Shown: piece after piece, positions 10,237 to 32,000 of the stretch
Layout of the letters: every line of letters starts with the position of its first letter
How positions within the stretch are numbered: the stretch's first letter is position 1
Assembly (NCBI RefSeq): GCF_009557235.1
Contig: NZ_CP045650.1
Coordinates: forward strand, 690,001 to 722,000
Length of the DNA: 32,000 bases
Reading direction: 5' to 3'
Source: Acinetobacter wanghuae
GTDB lineage: Bacteria; Pseudomonadota; Gammaproteobacteria; Pseudomonadales; Moraxellaceae
Program-made: the position numbers and the translations under genes
Notes under the pieces: generated by a model
What the model saw: the letters and a program-made list of their open reading frames with translations, nothing else
What the model was told of the DNA's origin: nothing
Databases searched by the model: none

Positions 10237-10242
10237 GCGCTG

Positions 10243-11769
10243 ATGAATCCGACAGAAGTGATCCCTCAGCTCAAAGGTGGCAAGCTGATTCTGGCTGCCT
10301 TTGTTTTGGCGCTTGCCAATTTTATGGTCGTCTTAGATATGACCATTGCCAATGTTTCTGTACCGCATATTACGGGGAGCCTCGCAGTGTCTGCATCGCA
10401 GGGCACATGGGTGATTACCTCTTATGCTGTTGCCGAAGCGATTTGTGTGCCTTTAACGGGCTGGTTAGCCGGTCGATTTGGTGCAGTGCGTACCTTTAGC
10501 GTCAGTTTATTTGGTTTTACATTGTTCTCCATACTCTGTGGACTTTCGACCAGTTTAGAGATGTTGGTGATTTGCCGAATTGGTCAGGGTTTGTTTGGTG
10601 GTCCAATTATGCCACTCAGTCAAACCTTGCTTATGCGTATTTTCCCACCTGAAAAGCAATCGCAAGCGATGGGTATGTGGGCAATGACCACAGTAGTAGG
10701 TCCGATTCTTGGACCCATTTTAGGCGGCTCGATTAGTGATAATTGGTCGTGGCATTGGATTTTCTTTATCAATATTCCTGTAGGTTTAGTTTGTGCCTAT
10801 GCGGCAATGCGCTTATTAAAATCAGTAGAAACCCCCATTCATCGTCTTAAAATTGATATGGGTGGTCTATTTTTATTGGTGTTATGGATTGGTGCTTTAC
10901 AGTTAATGCTCGACTTGGGTCATGAGCGTGATTGGTTTAATCATCCATCTATTGTGATTCTTGCCATTATTGCATTGCTTGGTTTGATTATATTTACCAT
11001 TTGGGAGCTGACAGAACGCAATCCTATGGTGAATATTCATATCTTTAAATATCGAAGTTTCACCATTTCTGTTTTAGCGTTGGCATTTGGTTTTGGCGCA
11101 TTCTTTGGCAGTATTGTGTTGATCCCGCAGTGGCTACAAATTAACTTGGGCTATACCGCGACATGGGCGGGGTATTTAACTGCAACGATGGGCTTTGGTA
11201 GTTTGCTGATGTCACCCATCGTCGCGAAAATGGCAACCAAATATGATCAGCGTGCTTTAGCCTGTTTTGGTTTATGTCTACTCGGTGGCGTGACCTTAAT
11301 GCGTGCCTTTTGGGTGACGGATGCCGACTTTATGGCATTGGCTTTGCCCCAAATTTTGCAGGGCTTTGCTGTGCCATTCTTCTTTATTCCTTTATCAAAT
11401 ATGGCATTGGCATCGGTATTACCACAGGAAATGGCATCGGCTGCGGGTTTAATGAATTTCCTGCGAACGATGGCAGGTGCGATTGGTGCATCGCTTGCGG
11501 TCACCATTTGGGATGATCATAGCAAGGTTGCGCGTAGCGAATTGGTGGGCAACTTGCATGTGACTGAATCGCAAAATACTTTGATGCAGCAGGGGATGAG
11601 TGACAGCAGTGCTTTGGCGTATATCTCCAACTTGGTCGATCGAGAAGCCTCTACATTAGCCGCCAATCATGTCTTTTTAGTGCTTGCTGCGGTGTTCATT
11701 TTTGCAGGGCTGATGATTTGGCTCTGTCCGCGACCCAAATCAGGTATGGGGGATATGCCATCTCATTAA
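10243..11769 (+). CDS. emrB: DHA2 (EmrB/QacA) family MFS drug efflux transporter, about 14 TM
   Basis: 508 aa with LDMTIANVSVPHI and GRFGAVRTF motifs and many TM segments. It is paired with emrA. Confidence 0.9.
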   Translation: MNPTEVIPQLKGGKLILAAFVLALANFMVVLDMTIANVSVPHITGSLAVSASQGTWVITSYAVAEAICVPLTGWLAGRFGAVRTFSVSLFGFTLFSILCGLSTSLEMLVICRIGQGLFGGPIMPLSQTLLMRIFPPEKQSQAMGMWAMTTVVGPILGPILGGSISDNWSWHWIFFINIPVGLVCAYAAMRLLKSVETPIHRLKIDMGGLFLLVLWIGALQLMLDLGHERDWFNHPSIVILAIIALLGLIIFTIWELTERNPMVNIHIFKYRSFTISVLALAFGFGAFFGSIVLIPQWLQINLGYTATWAGYLTATMGFGSLLMSPIVAKMATKYDQRALACFGLCLLGGVTLMRAFWVTDADFMALALPQILQGFAVPFFFIPLSNMALASVLPQEMASAAGLMNFLRTMAGAIGASLAVTIWDDHSKVARSELVGNLHVTESQNTLMQQGMSDSSALAYISNLVDREASTLAANHVFLVLAAVFIFAGLMIWLCPRPKSGMGDMPSH

Positions 11770-11783
11770 TTTAAAAAGAGTAG

Positions 11784-11813
11784 AAAAAACCGCTGATCAT
11801 TCAGCGGTTTTTT
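11784..11813. terminator. Bidirectional rho-independent terminator between emrB and glpK
   Basis: AAAAAACCGCTGA-tcat-TCAGCGGTTTTTT. The 8-bp GC-rich stem is flanked by A and T runs. Confidence 0.7.
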
Positions 11814-11823
11814 ACATCAACAT

Positions 11824-13308
11824 TTAGATATCAGATCGAGCGCGTCGTAATGCGGTTTGCCATTTATCTAAATGCTGCTGGCGTTCATCATCTTGCATTT
11901 TAGGTTCAAAAGCGCGTTCAAGTTGCCAAGATTGTGCAATATCATCTAAGTTAGAAAATACCCCTGCCTTTAAGCCTGCCATCGCTGCTGCACCCCATGC
12001 CGTTGATTCAAGCATTTTGGGGCGGAGGACAGGTACATTTAATAGATCTGCTTGGAATTGCATCAGCATATCGTTTTGACTTGCGCCACCATCAACACGT
12101 AATTCTTTTAATGGCTGAGTAATATCCGATTGCATAGCGGTCAGCACGTCAGAGACTTGAAATGCAATGGATTCCAACGCAGCACGTGCAATATGCGCTT
12201 TGTTTGTGCCGCGTGACATGCCACACATGATGGCGCGGGCTTCACTGTCCCAGTGCGGTGCCCCAAGTCCAGTAAAAGCAGGTACCAGTACCACACCATC
12301 ACTATTCGAGACTTTACAGGCAAGTTTTTCTACATCTGCGCTTTTTTGAATAATGCTTAAACCATCACGCAGCCATTGGACTACAGCACCCGCCATAAAG
12401 ACGCTGCCTTCTAATGCATAGGTCGCTTGCTCTTGGGCTTGCCACGCTAAAGTCGAAAGTAATTTATTTTGACTTAGTTGTACGTCACTTCCAGTGTTAA
12501 ACAGCATAAAGCAGCCTGTGCCGTAGGTGTTTTTTGCTGTACCGACTTCAAAGCAAGACTGACCAAAGAGCGCTGATTGTTGATCGCCTAAAATGCCAGT
12601 AATCGGAATGTCTGCCCCGAGCAAACCCGTCGCGGTATCAGCGACATAACTGTCTGAAGCAATAATTTTGGGTAAAACAGCGCGTGGAATATCGAATAGC
12701 GCCAGCAGTTCTTCATCCCATTGTTGTGTTTTTAGATTCATAAGCATGGTACGAGAGGCATTAGTGGCTTCAATGACATGCTCTGCACCTTGGGTTAAAT
12801 TCCAAATGAGCCAACTGTCGACTGTGCCAAAAGCTATATGTCCTTGTTGGGCGAGGGCACGCAAACCGTCAATATGGTCGAGTAACCACACCAATTTCCC
12901 TGCACTAAAATAAGGGTCGATGCGTAAGCCTGTGAGCTGTTGAATTTTGTCTTGTAAATTATTTTGAATAAGTTGATTGCACCAATCGGTTGCACGACGG
13001 TCTTGCCAAATAATAGCAGGTGCGAGCGGTTTTCCTGTGCGTTTATCCCAAACAACAGTTGTTTCACGCTGATTGGTCAAACCAATGGCTTTAATGTCTT
13101 TGGCTAAAATATTGGCATTCGCAAGGGCTTGTTGCACCACCGCAATTTGGGTTGACCAAATTTCTAAAGCATCTTGTTCCACCCAACCTGAATGTGGGGT
13201 TTGAATTTGGATTTCTCGCTGTGCGCTGGCGTGAATATGTCCGCATTCATCGAAAATAATAGCGCGGCTTGAGGTTGTGCCCTGATCGAGAGCCAATAAG
13301 TAACTCAT
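11824..13308 (-). CDS. glpK: Glycerol kinase
   Basis: 494 aa with the FGGY kinase N-terminus MSYLLALDQGTTSSRAIIFD, plus GLTNQRETTVVWDK and DGGASQNDMLMQFQADLL. Confidence 0.95.
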   Translation of the reverse strand: MSYLLALDQGTTSSRAIIFDECGHIHASAQREIQIQTPHSGWVEQDALEIWSTQIAVVQQALANANILAKDIKAIGLTNQRETTVVWDKRTGKPLAPAIIWQDRRATDWCNQLIQNNLQDKIQQLTGLRIDPYFSAGKLVWLLDHIDGLRALAQQGHIAFGTVDSWLIWNLTQGAEHVIEATNASRTMLMNLKTQQWDEELLALFDIPRAVLPKIIASDSYVADTATGLLGADIPITGILGDQQSALFGQSCFEVGTAKNTYGTGCFMLFNTGSDVQLSQNKLLSTLAWQAQEQATYALEGSVFMAGAVVQWLRDGLSIIQKSADVEKLACKVSNSDGVVLVPAFTGLGAPHWDSEARAIMCGMSRGTNKAHIARAALESIAFQVSDVLTAMQSDITQPLKELRVDGGASQNDMLMQFQADLLNVPVLRPKMLESTAWGAAAMAGLKAGVFSNLDDIAQSWQLERAFEPKMQDDERQQHLDKWQTALRRARSDI

Positions 13309-13437: not shown

Positions 13438-13796
13438 GGGGATGTTTCTGGCTTCGACGCTGGTGATGAAACTCATAGATGCATGCCGAGAGCGCATTTT
13501 CTCTCGTAAATCAAATTTGCATTTTTTAGTCGCAAACGACGAATCATACGCTCTAGCTGCCTAAGGGCAGCTTGTCCGCCTCTCCGAATACTTGTGGTTA
13601 GAGAGTCCGACTGAAGCGCACGCACACAAGTCCGTATTAAAGCCACGCCTCGGGGCTTTGTACTAAATTTAGAGGATCGCCCTAGCACCCTGTTCGTCGG
13701 GTCGCAACGGGTTAAACTAATTGACGATATCTAAGCATGTAGTATTCTCGAGCGTAATGCTGGCGGACGCGGGTTCAACTCCCGCCATCTCCACCA
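13438..13796 (+). ncRNA. ssrA: tmRNA (SsrA), 359 nt
   Basis: The 5' GGGGAUG pairs with the 3' CAUCUCC-ACCA, including the G3:U alanine identity pair. A T-arm is present (GGGTTCAACTCCCGCC). The tag reading frame at 13532-13564 is GCA AAC GAC GAA TCA TAC GCT CTA GCT GCC TAA, which encodes ANDESYALAA. Confidence 0.95.
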
Positions 13797-13909: not shown

Positions 13910-13972
13910 TGTACACCTAGTATGTACACTGTCATGTACATTGTAGGTTTTATTGAACTCACGGGTGTACAA
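13910..13972 (+). repeat. Four TGTACA(C/T/A) motifs clustered just upstream of int. Candidate integrase arm-type or operator sites.
   Basis: TGTACAC at 13910-13916, TGTACACTG at 13923-13931, TGTACATTG at 13935-13943 and TGTACAA at 13966-13972. The int ATG is at 13976. Confidence 0.5.
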
Positions 13973-13975
13973 GGT

Positions 13976-15169
13976 ATGAAAAGAAAAGATATTAAACGCC
14001 GTCCTTTATCCGATACTGTCTTAGCCAATCTCGAACCTGAATCAAAAGAATACCGAGAACTCGACGGCGAAGGCTTGTATTTCCGTGTGAAGCCCGATGG
14101 CAAAAAAGGCTGGTTATTCCGTTATAAAAAACCTGATGGCAAATGGTCATGGTTAGGCATTGGCACTTATCCTGAAATCTCAGGGGCGAATGCCCGAAAA
14201 AAAGCTAAAGAGGTCATGAATGATATTTCAGGCGGTGACAATCCCATCATTACCAAGCAACAAAGAAAGCAACAGGAACTTGAGCAGAATAATGCCACCT
14301 TTGAATCCTTAGCCCGTGAATGGTTGGATACTAAACTTCATCATTGGGTGAGTGACACAATGGTGAGAAACAAAGGGGCATTAGAAAAGCATATCTTCCC
14401 TGTGTTTGGTAAACGCTTATATACAGAAATCAGACCGATCGAATGGATGAATCATTTAAAAGGTATTCAGCAAGAAAAAGGCATCTTTGAACAGGTCAAT
14501 CGTATTCGTGCCATGTGCCGTGATATTTATGATTTTGCAAAGGTGACAGGGCGCATTGATTACAATCCTTTAGAAGGACTGCAAAAGTATCTTCAACAGG
14601 GCAAAAAAGAAAACATGGCTCACGTTAGTGAGCAAGAACTTCCAGCCTTGATCAGAGCCATTAATAACTATCCGACTCATGATGTGAAAATCGGTTTGCA
14701 GCTTTTGGCAATGTTGTTTTGCCGTCCGAGTGAGTTAAGAGGTGCAACATGGGACGAGTTCGATTTAGATCAAGGTTTATGGAATATTCCTGAGCATCGG
14801 ATGAAAAAACGCCGTGAGCATGTGATTCCTTTACCGACTCAAGCCATTGCCTTGTTAAATGAGTTAAAGAGCTATCAGACCAATTCTGATTATTTATTTC
14901 CAAGTCGATCAGACAAGAACAAGCCAAAGTCAGACACCGTTTTTATTATGGCACTTCGCCGAATGGGTTATGAGGGCAGACAAACGCCACACGGTTTTAG
15001 GCATATTGCCAGTACCTTGTTAAACAATCGTGGTTTTGATGAAAGGCATATTGAGTCAGCTTTGGCACACGTAAAAGATGGCGTGGCTGGTGTATACAAC
15101 AAGGCGCAATATTTACAAGATCGTAAACAGATGATGCAGTGGTATGCGGATTACGTAACTAGTTTTTAG
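13976..15169 (+). CDS. int: P4-type tyrosine integrase (DUF4102 arm-binding N-domain plus phage integrase catalytic domain)
   Basis: From ATG 13976 the protein reads MKRKDIKRRPLSDTVLANLEPESKEYRELDGEGLYFRVKPDGKKGWLFRY, a typical P4/CP4-57 integrase N-terminus. The C-terminus has HGFRHIASTLL (HxxR) and GVYNKAQY (catalytic Tyr). The track ORF begins upstream at 13922. Confidence 0.9.
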   Translation: MKRKDIKRRPLSDTVLANLEPESKEYRELDGEGLYFRVKPDGKKGWLFRYKKPDGKWSWLGIGTYPEISGANARKKAKEVMNDISGGDNPIITKQQRKQQELEQNNATFESLAREWLDTKLHHWVSDTMVRNKGALEKHIFPVFGKRLYTEIRPIEWMNHLKGIQQEKGIFEQVNRIRAMCRDIYDFAKVTGRIDYNPLEGLQKYLQQGKKENMAHVSEQELPALIRAINNYPTHDVKIGLQLLAMLFCRPSELRGATWDEFDLDQGLWNIPEHRMKKRREHVIPLPTQAIALLNELKSYQTNSDYLFPSRSDKNKPKSDTVFIMALRRMGYEGRQTPHGFRHIASTLLNNRGFDERHIESALAHVKDGVAGVYNKAQYLQDRKQMMQWYADYVTSF

Positions 15170-16486: not shown

Positions 16487-16972
16487 ATGCAAGAACTCAT
16501 CACTATTCAAAATGGTCAGGCAGTGACAACGGATATTCTGATTGCCAAAGCATTTAATAAACGTCCAAGCTCAGTTAGACGAGCAATTAAAAACTTAAAC
16601 TGCTCAGAAGAATTTAGACTGCACAATTTTGCACACACCTACTATGTTGACCAACAAGGAAAGAAACAACCGAGTTATCTCATCACAAAAGATGGCTTTG
16701 TTTTGCTGGTCATGGGATTTACAGGGAAGTATGCCACTGGGTTTAAAATCCAATACATTGAGGCATTCAACAAAATGGAAAAGTATTTGCAAAGTACTCA
16801 GCAACAATATAACCAAGTGAATTTTTATTTTAATGTCAAAAAAGATGGAATCAGTGATTGTGCTAGAAGCATGGTTTTTTGGAAGCAAGAAAAGCCAGTC
16901 CTTTTAAATATTCTTGCAACATTGGAAAAGCACTTACAGCTCGATTTATTTCAAGATGCTGGAACTAAATAG
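16487..16972 (+). CDS. Rha-family phage regulatory protein
   Basis: 161 aa. LITIQNGQAVTTDILIAKAFNKRPSSVRRAIKNL...YLITKDGFVLLVMGFTGKYATGFKIQYIEAFNKME matches the Phage_pRha domain pattern. It lies 2 nt after the alpA stop. Confidence 0.8.
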   Translation: MQELITIQNGQAVTTDILIAKAFNKRPSSVRRAIKNLNCSEEFRLHNFAHTYYVDQQGKKQPSYLITKDGFVLLVMGFTGKYATGFKIQYIEAFNKMEKYLQSTQQQYNQVNFYFNVKKDGISDCARSMVFWKQEKPVLLNILATLEKHLQLDLFQDAGTK

Positions 16973-16980
16973 GGGGCGAC

Positions 16981-19401
16981 ATGACTGCAATTCAAGAAGC
17001 CCCGAGCTTAGAACAGCCTTTAGACATTCTAGCAAATTGCCGAAAATATAATCCACAAGATAACGCTTATTTGCGTCATCCTGTGATAAACCGTTTTGGC
17101 AGTCCTGAACAAAGCATTTATATGGATGAAATGACCGTCAGTTTATATGGTGTTAAATATGAACAGCCTTTGATTTTACCTGTACATAATGCACAGCTTG
17201 AACTGGTGCAATGTGCCGTATTACAGAATCAACAGCCTGTAAAAGTCATTCCTGATGGCATGGAAAAAGGATTCGCTTACTACGGCGAATTGCGAAAAGA
17301 TCATCCTGTCATCATCACATATAGTTTGGAAGCATTTTTCAAAATCGCTCAAACGAGTTACGCCGTTGTATTGGTGATCTTACAAGACTTATGCAGACAG
17401 CCATTAAAAGAACTCAAAGCATTCGATTTTGAGCAGATTCAATCTGTGGTGAATCAATTATCCAAAGCTGGATATAAACGCTTATACATGCCAGTCAGAG
17501 CCGAACATATACAGCTTGAGCCATTTCAAAAGCTGGAACAACACACAGAACTTAGACTGCTTAATCAATTTCAAGTCATAGAGGGAAATGAATATTACAC
17601 GGAAATATCTCAGGATGAAGATCCTTTGGAAGTCGAAGCATTTCTAAAGATGGCGATAGCGTTATTGTTGCCTAAAGGACATCTAGCCAAACTTATGAAA
17701 TGGGGGATGGGATACTTCTGTATCCGCCAAGATGGCATATTTTACGTGAATAAAAATGTTAAAGGGGATATGCAAAGCCGTTTCATTTGCAGTCCTATTT
17801 TAGTTAAAGCAAAAACGCGAGATGAGGCTAGTAACAATTGGGGGGTGTTGTTGGAGTGGCACGATGACAAACAGGTTAAACATACTCAAGCAGTATCAAT
17901 GGAACTCTTCCAAACAGATGGAAAAGAACTTCGCACCACATTAGCTAATCAGGGCGTGAGGATTTCCTCTGATCAGCGATGCAGAAACTTATTCCAGTGT
18001 TACTTGATGAATTATCCAATCGAGCAATATGCCTTGTGTGTTGATCGTGTCGGTTGGCATGGCGATGTATTTGTATTGCCTCACCAACACTATGGACAGA
18101 TGAATGAACACATTGTTTATCAGGCAGTGACAGGCTTAGACAATCGCTATAAAAGCAAAGGCACGTTAGAGCAATGGCGAAACCAAGTAGCACAATTGGT
18201 AGAGCAACATAGCTTTCTAGTTTTTTCCTTGTGTACTGCGTTTACAGGGCAGTTACTTAGACCATTGAACCAACAGGGGGGTGGTTTTCACCTAAAAGGT
18301 GGATCATCCAAGGGAAAAAGTACAGCTTTAAATCTTGCCTGTTCTGTATGGGGTAATCCTGAACAATTTTATCGTACGTGGAGAGCAACAGGTAATTTTC
18401 TTGAGCATACAGCTTGTATGCACAATGACGGTTTTTTAGTTCTTGATGAAATTGGAGAAATTAATAATCCAAAAGAACTGGGCAATATTGTCTATATGCT
18501 TGCCAATGGCATAGGTAAAGGTCGCATGACTAAGCAAATTACAGCCAAGCCCATGCACCAATGGAAAGTGATCTTTCTATCCAGTGGTGAAAAGAGCATG
18601 AAAGAAATCATGCTCGAGCAAGGTCAAAAGACCAAGCTAGGGCAGGAAATTAGACTTGCCGATATTGATATAGATCAATCTGAATATGGTGTATTTGATT
18701 GCTTAAATTTTGCTGAAGATGGCGCAAAGCAAGCGATTGAATTAAGCCAGCGTATGAGTGGCTGCTACGGCGTGGCGAGTGAAGTATGGTTAGATTATCT
18801 CAGCAAAGATAAATCTGAGCGCATGGGGCAAGCCAAACAGCTTTTAAACCAATATCGTGAAATTCTAGTCGGTGAGCATACGCAAGGGCATATCAGTCGA
18901 GTTGCAAACTACTTTGCAGTGGTGGCGGTGGCTGGAGAAATGGCAACACAAGCCAAGATTACAGGATGGCAAACAGGTACAGCATTGAACGCCGTTGTTA
19001 AAGTATTTCAGCATTGGTTAAGTGGTTTTGAGCATGTTGGAGACTATGAAAATCGAGAAATCATTGCTCATGTGAAAGCATTTTTCGAGGCGAATGAATC
19101 CAGTCGTTTTGAAGCCATTACACCTGATGCAGACAATATCGAACGTGTCGTAAATCGTGTCGGTTATTGGAAAATCGAAAACAATGAAAAGATTTTCTAT
19201 GTATTGCCTGAACAATTTAAAAAAGAAGTCTGTAAGGGGTATGACAGTCGTAAGGTGGCAAAGGTACTGATAGAGCATGATCTACTTGAGCATGACACAG
19301 CGAAGAAAACCAAGACCGTCCGATTACCGAATAGAAGTCAGTCCATCCGTGTGTATGCCATTAAAGAATCAATCTTTAGTTGCAATATAGATCATTCATA
19401 A
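16981..19401 (+). CDS. DUF927-type primase/SF3-like helicase (P4 alpha-like replication protein)
   Basis: 806 aa with Walker A HLKGGSSKGKSTAL (about 18290-18330) and Walker B-like FLVLDEIGE. Size and position match the replication protein of P4-like and PICI-like islands. An iteron field starts 1 nt after its stop. Confidence 0.8.
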   Translation: MTAIQEAPSLEQPLDILANCRKYNPQDNAYLRHPVINRFGSPEQSIYMDEMTVSLYGVKYEQPLILPVHNAQLELVQCAVLQNQQPVKVIPDGMEKGFAYYGELRKDHPVIITYSLEAFFKIAQTSYAVVLVILQDLCRQPLKELKAFDFEQIQSVVNQLSKAGYKRLYMPVRAEHIQLEPFQKLEQHTELRLLNQFQVIEGNEYYTEISQDEDPLEVEAFLKMAIALLLPKGHLAKLMKWGMGYFCIRQDGIFYVNKNVKGDMQSRFICSPILVKAKTRDEASNNWGVLLEWHDDKQVKHTQAVSMELFQTDGKELRTTLANQGVRISSDQRCRNLFQCYLMNYPIEQYALCVDRVGWHGDVFVLPHQHYGQMNEHIVYQAVTGLDNRYKSKGTLEQWRNQVAQLVEQHSFLVFSLCTAFTGQLLRPLNQQGGGFHLKGGSSKGKSTALNLACSVWGNPEQFYRTWRATGNFLEHTACMHNDGFLVLDEIGEINNPKELGNIVYMLANGIGKGRMTKQITAKPMHQWKVIFLSSGEKSMKEIMLEQGQKTKLGQEIRLADIDIDQSEYGVFDCLNFAEDGAKQAIELSQRMSGCYGVASEVWLDYLSKDKSERMGQAKQLLNQYREILVGEHTQGHISRVANYFAVVAVAGEMATQAKITGWQTGTALNAVVKVFQHWLSGFEHVGDYENREIIAHVKAFFEANESSRFEAITPDADNIERVVNRVGYWKIENNEKIFYVLPEQFKKEVCKGYDSRKVAKVLIEHDLLEHDTAKKTKTVRLPNRSQSIRVYAIKESIFSCNIDHS

Positions 19402-20562: not shown

Positions 20563-22144
20563 ATGACCCAAGTGCAACTCCAACAACTCCAAAAACAACT
20601 CTGGAATATCGCAAATACTTTGCGTGGCAAGATGGGAGCGGATGAGTTCCGTGATTACATTTTGGGTTTCATCTTCTTTAAATATTTATCTGAAAAATCG
20701 GTTACTTTTGCTAATGAGCTTCTCGAAGGTGAAGATATCAGCTTTTTAGAGCTTGATGAAAGTAACGAAGAGCATGTGGCATATATTGAAGAAATTAAAA
20801 AGAATGCCATTAGCGAAGTGGGCTATGCACTAACACCAAAGCAACTGTTCCATACCCTAGCTAAACGTGGTCGCAGTGAAGATAAGGCTGAGAATTTCAT
20901 CTTAGATGATCTTGCGGCAACATTAAAAGCGATTGAACAAAGCACTCTAGGCACAGATTCAGCAGATGACTTTGCCAACCTGTTTGAAGATATGGATCTC
21001 AACTCAAGTAAGTTGGGCAATACCGCAAGTGACCGTAATGAGTTAGTGGCAAAAGTCCTGAGTCATTTAGACGATATTGATTTTGATATCTCCAATACAG
21101 AAGCGGATATTTTGGGTGATGCTTATGAATACCTGATTGGTGAGTTTGCATCAGGTGCGGGCAAAAAAAGCGGGGGAATTCTATACCCCGCAAACCGTAT
21201 CGACTTTACTGGCGAAGATTGTCACCCAAGGCAAAGAGCGTTTACGCTCAGTCTATGACCCAACGTGTGGTTCAGGTTCACTGCTTTTACGTGTAAAACG
21301 TGAAGTGAAAGATGTGGATATGATTTACGGTCAAGAGATGAATCGTACCACCTACAACTTGGCACGTATGAACATGATTCTGCATGATGTGCATTTTGCC
21401 AAGTTTGACATTAAGCAAGAAGATACTTTAATCCGTCCTCAGCATCTCGATAAACGTTTTGACGCCGTGGTGGCGAATCCTCCATTTTCTGCGAAATGGT
21501 CAGCCGATCCGCTATTTTTACAAGATGAGCGTTTTAGCAGTTACGGCAAACTTGCACCAAGTTCTAAAGCGGATATGGCATTTGTTCAGCACATGCTTCA
21601 TCACTTAGATGAAAACGGGACGATGGCAGTGGTCTTGCCCCACGGCGTTTTATTCCGTGGTTCAAGTGAGGGCGTGATTCGTCAATACTTGATCGAGCAG
21701 ATGAATGTAATTGATACCATCATTGGTCTACCTGCCAATATTTTCTATGGTACGTCTATTCCGACCTGTATTTTGGTGCTGAAAAAAAACCGTGAGCATA
21801 AAGACAATATTTTGTTTATTGATGCCAGCAATGAGTTTGAAAAGCAAAAGACCCAGAACAAATTATTGCCTGAGCATTTAGACAATATTATTGGTGCTTT
21901 TGAAAAGCGTCAGAATATTGAGAAATATGCCAAAGTTGCCACTTTGCAAGAAGTGAAAGACAACGACTTTAATTTAAACATTCCTCGTTATGTCGATACC
22001 TTTGAAGCCGAAGCTGAGATTGATTTAGATGCGATTGCGAAAAAGCTTCAAGCTTTAGAAGTGGAAAGTCAAAAGACCGATGCAGTGATTGCAGATTTTT
22101 GTAAAGAGCTAGGTATTGATTCGCCATTTGTGGAGGTGAAGTAA
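20563..22144 (+). pseudogene. hsdM: Type I R-M methyltransferase HsdM split by a +1 frameshift in an A7 run (21163-21169)
   Basis: ORF 20563-21258 is an HsdM N-domain (LWNIANTLRGKMGADEFRDYILGFIFFKYLSE ... EYLIGEFASGAGKK). ORF 21137-22144 continues with AGEFYTPQTVSTLLAKIV, DPTCGSGSLL (motif I) and NPPF (motif IV). Deleting one A gives GAGKKAGEFYTP in a single 526-codon frame. Confidence 0.85.
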
Positions 22145-29703: not shown

Positions 29704-29730
29704 ATTAAAGGAGCTTAGGGAAGATTGATT

Positions 29731-29751
29731 TGTACACTGGTTTGTACATTG
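29731..29751 (+). repeat. Right-end copy of the 21-bp TGTACACTG-N3-TGTACATTG repeat
   Basis: TGTACACTGGTTTGTACATTG here versus TGTACACTGTCATGTACATTG at 13923-13943. They share orientation and match at 18 of 21 positions. Confidence 0.5.
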
Positions 29752-29800
29752 GCTTTTTTAAGTAAATTAATATTTATATATTTCAATTATTTAGGTATTT

Positions 29801-29826
29801 AGTTCAATTGACGCCATCGCCATTGG
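29801..29826 (+). other. Degenerate copy of the ssrA 3' end. Candidate attR or displaced ancestral ssrA terminus.
   Basis: AGTTCAATTGACGCCATCGCCATTGG aligned to GGTTCAACTCCCGCCATCTCCACCAA (13772-13797) shares the blocks GTTCAA, CGCCATC and CCA. By my hand alignment about 17-18 of 26 positions match. The match is weak on its own. Confidence 0.3.
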
Positions 29827-29992
29827 CTTCTAATACATCAATTCCCTAAATTCATTTATTAAAAGAAAAAAGTAAGTTGTCTTAAGTCAAGATGTATTTT
29901 TGGTTCACCAAGACTATTCTTCGATAATGTAATCATTAAAGTTTATTATATAATTACAATAATCTATGAAAATTAAAATTATATTTTTTTAA

Positions 29993-30553
29993 ATGACACT
30001 GGGGGCATTGATGTCAATTGCAAAGCAAGAAATTGTTAGCCTATATAACGAAGTAAAAGATAGTGTGAATCATGCAATCAATGATATTAGTTCAATATCT
30101 TTATCAAGTGAGGAGGAGCAGAAACATATCTTACAAATCAAAGATAAATTAAGTGAAATTAGTCAAAGCTTCAATAAAGAGATTGATAGTCTAGAAAAGA
30201 ACTCAGAATGGGAAAAATTTACTATTGCCTTTTTTGGGGAGACAAATGCTGGAAAAAGTACGATCATTGAGTCCTTGAGGATTATTTTTAAAGAAAAAGA
30301 ACGCCAAAAACACATTGAAAATGGTCAAGCTTCATTAGATGAGTTGGAAAAAACGTTTTCTGAAAATTCGGGTGCTTTAATTGCAGACTTGAATACAAGT
30401 CTGCAAAATTATACGAATGAAATACGAAATATTGAAAGACAAATTACCTTAATCAAAAAAGAAAGTAATTCTTCATTTAATAATAAGATATTTGCTGCAG
30501 CTGGGATATTCTTGGGAATCATCCTAACACTGATCTATCAGGCAGTGATTTAG
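29993..30553 (+). CDS. Small coiled-coil protein with a GTPase P-loop (G1) and a C-terminal TM anchor
   Basis: 186 aa. The likely start is ATG 30011, preceded by GGGGG. The P-loop is FTIAFFGETNAGKSTIIESL (30236-30259), followed by a coiled-coil-like stretch and then IFAAAGIFLGIILTLIYQAVI. No DxxG or NKxD motif follows the P-loop. Confidence 0.6.
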   Translation: MTLGALMSIAKQEIVSLYNEVKDSVNHAINDISSISLSSEEEQKHILQIKDKLSEISQSFNKEIDSLEKNSEWEKFTIAFFGETNAGKSTIIESLRIIFKEKERQKHIENGQASLDELEKTFSENSGALIADLNTSLQNYTNEIRNIERQITLIKKESNSSFNNKIFAAAGIFLGIILTLIYQAVI

Positions 30554-30563
30554 GAGAAATAAG

Positions 30564-32000
30564 ATGACAAATCTGAATAATGATAGATGGTTCTATTTAG
30601 ATAAAAAACATGAAACTTTAGGTAATTTTAATTCACAACAATTATTAGAGTTATATCAAAGAAAAATTCTTACAAATCGCAGTTATGTTTGGAAAGAAGG
30701 TTTTGAAGACTGGAAAAGATTTAAAGATGTACGCCCATCAATTCAGAATCAAGAATTAAAGATTATAGAACAACAGGTTCAAATTGAATCAGTAACTAAA
30801 GAAAGTGATTTAAATAGTTCTAAATTAAGCAATTCTAAAATTGTGGAAAAGCAAGAATTAAATAATATCGATTATACAGCTCCATATCGCGTGAATTGGA
30901 TATCTGAAAATCATAAACAGAATGTAACAAGTTTGACACAGCAAATCGCTGAAAGTTTAGCTTTACAAAAGAGGTTAGAAAGTTTTCGATTATCACCAAA
31001 TAAACCAGATGGGTTGATTATAGGTACTGGTGAAGCTGACTTTACCAAGGATAACGTTCCTTATGAGTTTACTTATCAAAATAAAACATTCCAGTTGATT
31101 GATGTTCCTGGTATTGAAGGAAATGAAGGACGGTATGAGCAGTTTGTAAAAGAAGCAGTAGAAAAAGCTCATTTAGTAATTTATGTAAACGGGACTAATA
31201 AGAAGCCTGAAGAACTTACTGCTCGTAAAATCAAAAGTTATCTGAATCAATATGCAAAAATATATGCAGTTTGTAATTTGCGTGGTAAAGCCGATAAATA
31301 TGATTCAGAAATAGATGAACTAGTTTCATTAAAACATAGCCATAAAGAAATGGATGATGTTTACAATCAGACTTTAATTGTATTAAATCAAGCTGTAGGA
31401 GCCGATTTGATAGACGGAGGTACGTGTGTTCAGGGCTTAATGGCATTCTCTTCATTAGCTTACGATCAGAGTGAAGAAGAAACTACAATTTCATCTAGTC
31501 GTAAAGATTTAATTGCAACACAAAAGTCATTTATGCGTGACTTTCCTTCATTAGAAAAAATGAAAGAATTTAGTCAAATAGATGAGTTAGAGCAAAAAAT
31601 AATTTCAAAATTTTCTACGTTTGAAGAGGATATTATTGAAAGTAATAAAAATAAAATCGTTAGAAAAATAGAACAAATTAAAGCTGTTATTCAAGAACAA
31701 CTAAACGATCATCTGAAATTGCAAACAAAGATTAAGAAGGAGCTTGACGTTGGTCGAGATTCAATTAATCGAGCTTTAAACGATTTTGAAAGTAAGTTAT
31801 CGAATAAATCTAATAATGCAGTGAGTTCGGCTTTTATTAATATTGCAGATGAAGGATGTTTGATAATTGAAAAATACTTTGGTAACCAAGAACAAATATC
31901 TTCAAATATTGAAGATATAGTAGATTATGCAACTCACAATCTTTTCAAAGAATTAGAGAAAATTAAGACAGAAGAAAGTCAGTATTTTCAAGATAATCTA
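30564..32000 (+). CDS. GYF-like N-domain protein carrying G3 (DVPG) and G4-like GTPase motifs but no P-loop. Dynamin-like/helical C-terminal part. Runs off the window.
   Basis: It is not in the ORF track because there is no stop in the window. AGGAG at 30552-30556 precedes ATG 30564. I read 479 open codons to position 32000. The sequence includes RWFYLDKKHETLGNFNSQQLLELYQRKILTNRSYVWKEGFEDWKRFKDV (GYF_2-like), IIGTGEADFTKD, FQLIDVPGIEGNEG (31101-31112 is DVPG) and CNLRGKAD. Confidence 0.65.
   Translation, partial: MTNLNNDRWFYLDKKHETLGNFNSQQLLELYQRKILTNRSYVWKEGFEDWKRFKDVRPSIQNQELKIIEQQVQIESVTKESDLNSSKLSNSKIVEKQELNNIDYTAPYRVNWISENHKQNVTSLTQQIAESLALQKRLESFRLSPNKPDGLIIGTGEADFTKDNVPYEFTYQNKTFQLIDVPGIEGNEGRYEQFVKEAVEKAHLVIYVNGTNKKPEELTARKIKSYLNQYAKIYAVCNLRGKADKYDSEIDELVSLKHSHKEMDDVYNQTLIVLNQAVGADLIDGGTCVQGLMAFSSLAYDQSEEETTISSSRKDLIATQKSFMRDFPSLEKMKEFSQIDELEQKIISKFSTFEEDIIESNKNKIVRKIEQIKAVIQEQLNDHLKLQTKIKKELDVGRDSINRALNDFESKLSNKSNNAVSSAFINIADEGCLIIEKYFGNQEQISSNIEDIVDYATHNLFKELEKIKTEESQYFQDNL

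Follow-up and report, generated by a model that had tools for sequence, protein, structure and literature searches.

A probable two-chain dynamin-like protein encoded by leoC and leoB of an Eleos operon in Acinetobacter wanghuae

The leoC–leoB gene pair

We analysed 32,000 nucleotides of Acinetobacter wanghuae DNA (contig NZ_CP045650.1, positions 690,001–722,000; hereafter, the window), at the end of which two adjacent genes, leoC and leoB, carry between them the motifs of a GTPase domain (G domain). The two open reading frames (ORF1 and ORF2) matched the PADLOC models for LeoC and LeoB (Table 1) and together covered a profile of the fused protein LeoBC colinearly (ORF1 residues 15–96 on profile positions 15–98; ORF2 residues 134–478 on positions 100–419). 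These matches bear out an initial annotation, made from the letters of the sequence, that had recognized a dynamin-like or LeoA-like GTPase in an Eleos context. Very probably, leoC and leoB open a dynamin-like anti-phage operon of the Eleos (LeoABC) type and together encode one two-chain dynamin-like protein (DLP).

From the N to the C terminus, LeoC consists of helices, strand β1, the P-loop, helix α1, a helical spacer and a tail-anchor transmembrane (TM) helix. The P-loop, GETNAGKS (G1), stands alone: no second GTPase motif was found in ORF1. Beyond the P-loop, the protein is helical and of low complexity and ends in IFAAAGIFLGIILTLIYQAVI, and its best 19-residue hydropathy window (mean Kyte–Doolittle value, 2.2) reaches the last residue. 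ATG 30011, which is preceded by GGGGG, is probably the true start of leoC, giving 180 amino acids (aa), because Acinetobacter LeoC homologues have this length and begin at the equivalent of Met7 of the window protein. A weak sigma-70-like site at 29921–29949 (9/12 match in a promoter scan) scored no higher than shuffled sequences. At the other end of the gene, the leoC stop codon overlaps the ribosome-binding site (RBS) of leoB, which suggests translational coupling.

The window end cuts leoB, and ORF2 is open for all 479 codons up to that point. This part contains the remainder of the G domain and the helical stalk, with the paddle and the GTPase effector domain (GED) lying past the window end. 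No GxxxxGK[ST] occurs in the 479 codons. Near the N terminus is a GYF_2 domain in which the eponymous G-Y-F triplet is not retained, followed by switch-I-like, G3 and G4-like motifs. In alignment A1, residues G154, T155, G156, D159, F160 and T161 of LeoB were invariant, and the G2 threonine is likely to be T161 or T155. The G4-like motif is atypical (N-x-R-x(3)-D, not NKxD). The G1–G4 set is complete only across both chains, with G1 in LeoC and the others in LeoB. Direct reading upheld most of what the initial annotation had described: an ORF1 with G1, a helical stretch, a TM anchor and no further GTPase motif; an ORF2 starting 10 nt downstream behind AGGAG, with no P-loop, with a G2-like threonine, LIDVPGIEG and NLRGKAD, and with a GYF-like domain that is now assigned to Pfam GYF_2. 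The wide separation of G1 from G2–G4 also stands, at a corrected distance of about 760 nt from G1 to the switch-I-like motif in place of the ~690 nt first given.

Table 1 Coordinates of the Eleos features, the fourth gene of related loci and the genes of the island (positions in the window unless a contig is named)
Feature	Coordinates	Strand	Remarks
Upstream region of the Eleos cassette	29819–29992	+	Near-identity to independent contig L001 starts at 29819
leoC (ORF1)	29993–30553	+	186 aa; PADLOC LeoC E 4.7e-54
G1 / P-loop GETNAGKS	30236–30259	+	LeoC aa 82–89; direct reading; identical in 55/56 split loci
LeoC hydrophobic membrane anchor, C-terminal	30494–30550	+	aa 168–186
leoC stop TAG (30551–30553) with overlapping AGGAG RBS	30551–30563	+	10-nt spacer to leoB
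leoB (ORF2), 5' 479 codons	30564–32000	+	ATG 30564; PADLOC LeoB E 2e-123 (fragment)
GYF_2 domain	30588–30731	+	LeoB aa 9–56; Pfam PF14237 E 2.6e-10, 40.4 bits versus cutoff 25.8
Switch-I-like GTGEADFT	31023–31046	+	LeoB aa 154–161, inside IIGTGEADFTKD (aa 152–163)
G3 / switch II DVPGIEG	31101–31121	+	LeoB aa 180–186, within LIDVPGIEG (aa 178–186); invariant in A1
G4-like NLRGKAD	31275–31295	+	LeoB aa 238–244; N238 and R240 invariant in A1
Fourth gene (DUF805)	L001 7357–8826; L002 11695–12840; L004 10285–11202; L005 11740–13209; L088 9756–11033		
tmRNA gene	13438–13796		
Tyrosine integrase	13922–15169		Directly after the tmRNA gene
Rha regulator	16487–16972		
DUF927/HTH_56 primase-like protein	16981–19401		

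The operon beyond the window and its published relatives

Sequence past position 32000 was obtained through an exact-sequence look-up of ORF1, which returned a 9-kb contig (L001) that shares 2182 bp with the window (29819–32000; 99.95% identity by blastn). On this contig, full-length LeoB has 656 aa (PADLOC E 3.9e-171) and carries a glycine-rich hydrophobic paddle. The gene directly after it encodes LeoA (581 aa; PADLOC E 4.3e-237; Pfam Dynamin_N and DLP_helical) and is followed by one for a 489-aa membrane protein with DUF805 and FKBP_C domains. The leoA and DUF805 genes are thus predicted to lie just past the window end. LeoA also follows leoB in nearly all of the 84 loci compared below. A megablast of the locus against the PLSDB plasmids gave no match. 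Searches of PDB sequences with LeoC and LeoB (phmmer and profiles) returned chance-level matches only and did not reach the LeoA structure 4AUR, which was reached by fold search alone.

The initial annotation had stated that no case was known in which a split falls inside the G domain; LeoC and LeoB have in fact been published as exactly that split and have separate PADLOC models. In enterotoxigenic Escherichia coli (ETEC), LeoC comprises the P-loop-bearing N terminus of the G domain and a C-terminal membrane anchor, LeoB comprises the remainder with the DxxG motif, and the same division is kept in a variety of bacteria (Michie et al. 2014, PLoS One 9:e107211; PMC4159319). The window locus resembles ETEC H10407 in its gene order (leoC–leoB–leoA) and break point, in the P-loop and C-terminal anchor of LeoC (the 22-aa anchor of ETEC LeoC agrees with that of the window protein; PMC4159319) and in the DxxG motif, stalk, paddle and GED of LeoB. 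Identity between the window LeoB and that of E. coli (P0092) is 35%. The two systems differ in three respects: window-type LeoB has an N-terminal GYF_2 module and linker of ~90 aa (656 versus ~572 aa), the window LeoC is shorter (180–186 versus 206 aa), and leoA is followed here by a conserved DUF805 gene, in contrast to the non-conserved orf5 of ETEC (PMC4159319).

A related two-gene system of Bacillus vietnamensis, in which the first protein is fused, confers resistance to the jumbo phages AR9 and PBS1, and this resistance is lost when the P-loop of either protein is mutated; the first gene was noted to be divided in two in ETEC (Millman et al. 2022). This system was later named Eleos. The window operon shares with Eleos (the 'Dynamins' of Millman et al. 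2022; LeoA and LeoBC in DefenseFinder and PADLOC) homologous proteins, a location in a defence island and a tandem DLP pair, and differs from the tested B. vietnamensis system, in which LeoBC is fused, by encoding the first DLP in two genes and by adding a GYF domain and a fourth gene. In the literature searched, no split system had been tested against phage, and searches on the recent Eleos mechanism returned nothing relevant.

Split and fused forms across loci

To place the gene boundary in context, we scanned one genome per species with a LeoB alignment as query, which yielded 80 loci, and searched the ORFs in these loci with hidden Markov models built from four Acinetobacter operons. Together with the window and the contigs L001, L002, L004 and L005, this gave 84 scorable loci. 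A split protein is encoded by 56 of them (50 from species-level genomes): LeoC has an ORF of its own directly upstream, and LeoB lacks the P-loop. Hosts of the split form are Acinetobacter, Pseudomonas, Serratia, Escherichia, Pectobacterium, Shewanella, Burkholderiales, Azospirillum, Brachyspira, Treponema and metagenome-assembled genomes (MAGs) of a Vallitaleaceae and a Verrucomicrobia member, and they thus cover Gamma-, Beta- and Alphaproteobacteria, Spirochaetes, Firmicutes and Verrucomicrobia. The other 28 loci encode a fused protein and come mostly from Bacteroidales and Flavobacteriia, with further cases in Agathobaculum, Dialister, one Treponema and one Oxalobacteraceae.

Both halves of the split form are conserved. 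GETNAGKS is present in 55/56 split loci, GTGxxDFT in ~52/55, DVPGIEG in 53/55 and N[VIL]RGxx[DE] in ~49/55, a retention of GTPase motifs far beyond chance. The hydrophobic segment of LeoC ends 0–7 aa from the C terminus in 52/56, and the gap between leoC and leoB ranges from −32 to +57 nt in intact split loci. Three values fall outside this range: −73 (L010) and −71 (L085) are artefacts of calling the start of the longest ORF, and 542 (L074) reflects a disrupted leoB. Database searches retrieved 850 LeoC homologues, mostly stand-alone proteins of 180–310 aa. These data bear on the suggestion, also made in the initial annotation, that the pair is a decayed gene, that is, a once-fused leoBC broken by an insertion or nonsense lesion into non-functional fragments. 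In favour of such a history, fused LeoBC homologues exist in 28 loci; decay is nevertheless effectively refuted, given 56 split loci with intact ORFs, their own RBS, a C-terminal anchor and near-invariant motifs in both halves, and given that most LeoC homologues are stand-alone.

The comparison with fused homologues also locates the break. In compact fusions, G1 through the G3 DxPG motif spans 61 aa and reads GETNAGKSTIIE.FRILF, about six residues, and then DG.IVGDG..DFT. Because they are contiguous in these proteins, α1 of LeoC and 'DGLIIGTGEADFT' of LeoB are neighbours in the ancestral fold. The chain break lies between α1 and switch I, and always at that junction. Five fused proteins (L013, L056, L062, L069 and L080) carry a spacer at the break site and have a G1-to-G3 span of 101–178 aa. 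In such long fused LeoBC forms the spacer measures 40–117 aa and contains a coiled coil and amphipathic or hydrophobic patches; these forms are possible evolutionary intermediates or re-fusions. At L087, a LeoB homologue (P0049, 832 aa) has a different N-terminal extension of ~330 aa in place of GYF, and no LeoC-like or P-loop ORF was detected within 5 kb upstream, so that its P-loop partner is elsewhere or missing. In A. cumulans (L006, 8947–13257), leoA is seemingly interrupted (fragments at 10238–10426 and 11743–13257), and ~2.8 kb separates the end of leoB from the main leoA ORF, probably owing to an insertion element.

The same junction, between α1 and switch I, is the site of the helical-domain insertion in Gα subunits. 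Indeed, Gα was the top weak Pfam match for LeoC, and Foldseek returned Ras-like domains of Gα. The likeness is confined to a junction that hosts a large insertion in Gα and a break or spacer in LeoBC: Gα is a single chain with no homology beyond the GTPase fold, no anchor at the insertion and no dynamin stalk.

A different identity for ORF1, that of a small stand-alone P-loop ATPase with no relation to the G domain of LeoB, is suggested by database names such as 'DNA repair ATPase RecN' and 'chromosome segregation ATPase' and by weak AAA_23/SMC matches. The latter stem from the coiled coil and the P-loop (E ~1e-2 to 1e-3), compared with E values of 1e-54 and 1e-22 for the LeoC and LeoBC profiles, which align colinearly with the fused proteins. 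ORF1 also has no Walker B or signature motif, and LeoC is always immediately upstream of leoB. We therefore consider an unrelated ATPase very unlikely and retain the assignment to LeoC.

A G domain divided across LeoC and LeoB is a published hallmark that is ordinary in this family and is nothing new alone. The comparative data sharpen the picture of the known split, in that the break is fixed between α1 and switch I, long-spacer fusions appear as intermediates and both halves are constrained. LeoC and LeoB are thus a good natural model for trans-complemented GTPases.

Structure prediction

We modelled two single-chain forms with AlphaFold2. For a natural long-spacer fusion from Oxalobacteraceae (P0082; 36% identical), an unpaired alignment of 60 LeoC and 20 LeoB rows gave a model with a mean predicted local distance difference test (pLDDT) score of 74. 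Its best PDB matches in Foldseek were LeoA (4AUR; E 4.6e-7), Campylobacter DLP1/2 (5OXF/5OWV), the bacterial dynamin-like protein BDLP (2J69) and IniA (6J72), fold matches that confirm the DLP fold. A chimera of the window proteins that mimics the compact fusions (LeoC 1–104 joined to LeoB 147–479) reached a mean pLDDT of 78; it ends before the paddle and matched only Ras-like and Gα GTPase domains.

Assembly and function of LeoBC

In the mechanism that we propose, LeoC would supply ~70 aa of N-terminal helices (probably belonging to the neck bundle), β1, the P-loop and α1, and would be held in the inner membrane by its C-terminal tail anchor. Switch I and switch II (DVPG) would belong to LeoB, as would the G4-like motif, the helical stalk, the membrane paddle and the GED. 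In the BDLP architecture, the N-terminal helices of DLPs pack into a neck bundle. Because α1 and switch I are contiguous in compact fused LeoBC, the nucleotide pocket would form only on docking of LeoC onto LeoB, and GTP would be bound at this composite site only. The resulting LeoBC heterodimer would pair with LeoA as a tandem DLP couple for GTP-driven membrane action during phage infection, as suggested by P-loop mutants of either protein of the fused Bacillus system, which abolish defence. A two-chain GTPase, which the initial annotation had also put forward, is the interpretation that fits best. We infer that the G domain is complemented in trans, on the strength of the colinearity with fused proteins, and that the assembled protein is a GTPase acting in defence.

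Several points weigh against this interpretation. The leoA gene lies outside the window itself and is known from contig L001. LeoC and LeoB could not be purified in earlier work (Michie et al. 2014; PMC4159319), and GTP binding and hydrolysis by the pair are predicted only. Anti-phage activity is known for the fused Bacillus system only (Millman et al. 2022), and ETEC LeoA was first linked to vesicle and toxin secretion. In both models, moreover, the segment that should complete the G domain is undocked with a pLDDT of <50 (residues 68–162 of P0082, comprising β1, the P-loop and α1; the P-loop segment 75–102 of the chimera); as the alignments were unpaired and each had a single row joining the two halves, the undocked P-loop is uninformative.

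The last of the historical points corresponds to a different function, in which the operon would be a membrane-vesicle or virulence factor, as once proposed for ETEC LeoA, and not a phage defence system. Disruption of leoAB lowers the secretion of periplasmic and outer-membrane proteins (Michie et al. 2014 and earlier work; PMC4159319). The surroundings of these loci, which lie on integrative islands among WYL regulators and restriction–modification (R-M), Kiwa-like, GmrSD and SspE genes, point the other way, as does the fused system, which is co-localized with defence genes in ~60% of cases and is directly anti-phage (Millman et al. 2022). A vesicle or virulence role is on this evidence unlikely, and defence is the function that we favour.

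The initial annotation had suggested that the two-chain GTPase might be active only once assembled at the membrane. In this alternative, which concerns the manner of assembly and not the Eleos identity, LeoC and LeoB would be kept apart until a signal, such as phage-induced membrane perturbation, brings LeoB to membrane-anchored LeoC and so completes the G domain, and the split would act as an on/off switch. The two chains have separate membrane-targeting elements (the LeoC tail anchor and the LeoB paddle), the spacer at the break point is variable in length and content, and Michie et al. (2014; PMC4159319) speculated that dividing the protein could serve to control assembly or hydrolysis. Translational coupling and the shared operon favour co-assembly at synthesis, the ~70 aa of N-terminal LeoC helices predict a large, stable interface (from the secondary structure of the chimera and the BDLP architecture), and fused forms function without any split. 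We accordingly regard such a switch as a tentative proposal and favour a constitutive heterodimer, on account of that coupling and of the large interface expected at the neck.

Paired bacterial DLPs (Campylobacter DLP1/DLP2, Nostoc BDLP, Bacillus subtilis DynA and Mycobacterium IniA/IniC) resemble the Eleos pair in their tandem genes and overall fold, although their G domains are all contiguous and none has a GYF domain. B. subtilis DynA is also phage-protective. In Mgm1/OPA1, an anchored long isoform and a soluble short isoform must cooperate, an analogy drawn by Michie et al. (PMC4159319); it remains analogy only, as the anchor is N-terminal and the isoforms arise by proteolysis of one protein with a complete G domain.

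A GYF domain and a fourth gene in Acinetobacter

LeoB proteins with a GYF_2 domain formed ~48 protein clusters with 40–93% identity to the window LeoB, all of them of the Acinetobacter type; GYF on LeoB was absent from all 79 non-Acinetobacter loci of the genome scan (L007–L085). GYF copy number within this clade varies from one to three, and the LeoB of L086 (768–3056; P0033, 762 aa) has three tandem N-terminal repeats. Wherever sequence downstream of leoA was available in Acinetobacter-type loci (6/6; L001, L002, L004, L005, L006 and L088), GYF-bearing LeoB was accompanied by the DUF805 gene, which lies ~10 nt after leoA; this holds for LeoB identities as low as 40%. Neither feature occurs in the other loci. 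Clustering of the ORFs downstream of leoA revealed no conserved fourth gene in non-Acinetobacter Eleos loci. The combination of GYF_2 on LeoB with a DUF805 fourth gene, found in Acinetobacter only, is possibly new.

The DUF805 proteins of L001, L002, L004, L005 and L088 share a near-invariant G-x-PPP(P/A)PPLDNP(I/V)SK loop, which follows the DUF805 helices and precedes one further TM helix. After this helix comes a conserved module, 'LPFxLxxGDxYxKVxAxDGxDAYYxVTxxDGxxxHYxLDGxLQWSN', which is duplicated in L004. The C terminus is variable, with FKBP_C, a prolyl isomerase domain, in three of the five proteins read and also annotated in L006. A word-indexed homology search with the N-terminal part of the DUF805 protein gave five fragments only, too few for an architecture census.

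Eukaryotic GYF domains bind proline-rich peptides, which makes a contact between the GYF domain and the poly-proline loop an attractive hypothesis. The relevant topology can be approached through GYF_2 relatives, of which the library contained 365 at E<=1e-3. All of the 134 nearest proteins, which were scanned, carry GYF_2, and they include fusions to DUF4234 (35), DUF6693 (15), zinc ribbons (43) and DUF805 (2). As GYF sits N-terminally in one GYF_2–DUF805 fusion (P0384) and C-terminally in the other (P0355), both DUF805 termini, and hence the poly-proline loop, may be cytoplasmic; under a naive three-TM model with a cytoplasmic N terminus, the loop would be periplasmic. Docking of LeoB GYF_2 onto this loop would define a four-component Eleos variant in which the DUF805 protein serves as a second regulated membrane receptor or envelope sensor for the split dynamin. 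We put this forward as a speculative reading whose truth is doubtful: only 2/134 GYF_2 relatives are fused to DUF805, and with all cases in one genus the association may represent a single evolutionary event. Literature searches found no paper tying GYF to Eleos or phage defence, and a DUF4339/DUF805 search returned nothing relevant. If functional, the GYF domain and the DUF805/poly-proline/FKBP gene would represent the first accessory module, whether sensor or adaptor, to be described in an Eleos system.

In Pseudomonas, two Eleos loci of the non-GYF type also have a separate GYF_2 ORF (L032, 11444–11839; L048, 11102–11734) that lies 0.65–1.2 kb past leoA and, in L032, is followed by a hydrophobic segment. 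These were not counted as evidence, as two in ~75 loci is about the chance expectation.

Genomic island and neighbourhood

The R-M and Eleos genes are carried by an A. wanghuae genomic island integrated at ssrA, the tmRNA gene (Table 1). To the left of the island are core genes (sbcCD, hemB, an efflux pump and an FGGY kinase), and directly upstream of Eleos are type I R-M genes (HsdM, HsdS and HsdR), HNH and PDDEXK_4. Upstream of 29819 the contexts diverge (HsdR in the window, SspE in L001), which places the cassette in two different defence settings. Kiwa-like (KwaA) and GmrSD genes flank the locus in L005.

Two minor features of the R-M region were observed. The hsdM gene is read as two ORFs (HsdM_N, 20563–21258; N6_Mtase, 21137–22144) with a frameshift at ~21163–21171. 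Deleting a single A of the A-run in GGCAAAAAAAGCGGGGGAATTC brings back the canonical GKKAGEFYTPQ motif, so that the lesion is a +1 homopolymer frameshift. Phase variation, a pseudogene and a sequencing error are all possible explanations. Just past the hsdR stop codon (29728–29759) is a direct repeat, TTTGTACA-ctgg-TTTGTACA, followed by TTGGCTTTTTT, which was not called by a terminator scan.

A 299-aa HTH_11-WYL-WCX regulator gene, absent from the window and L001, lies between hsdR and leoC in the A. johnsonii contig L002, and the regulator is also present in L004, L005 and L006. The same order of HsdR followed by Eleos is found in L002 (5960–7408, corresponding to 29704–29992 of the window), with DNA identities to the window of 77% for HsdR and 73% for leoC/leoB.

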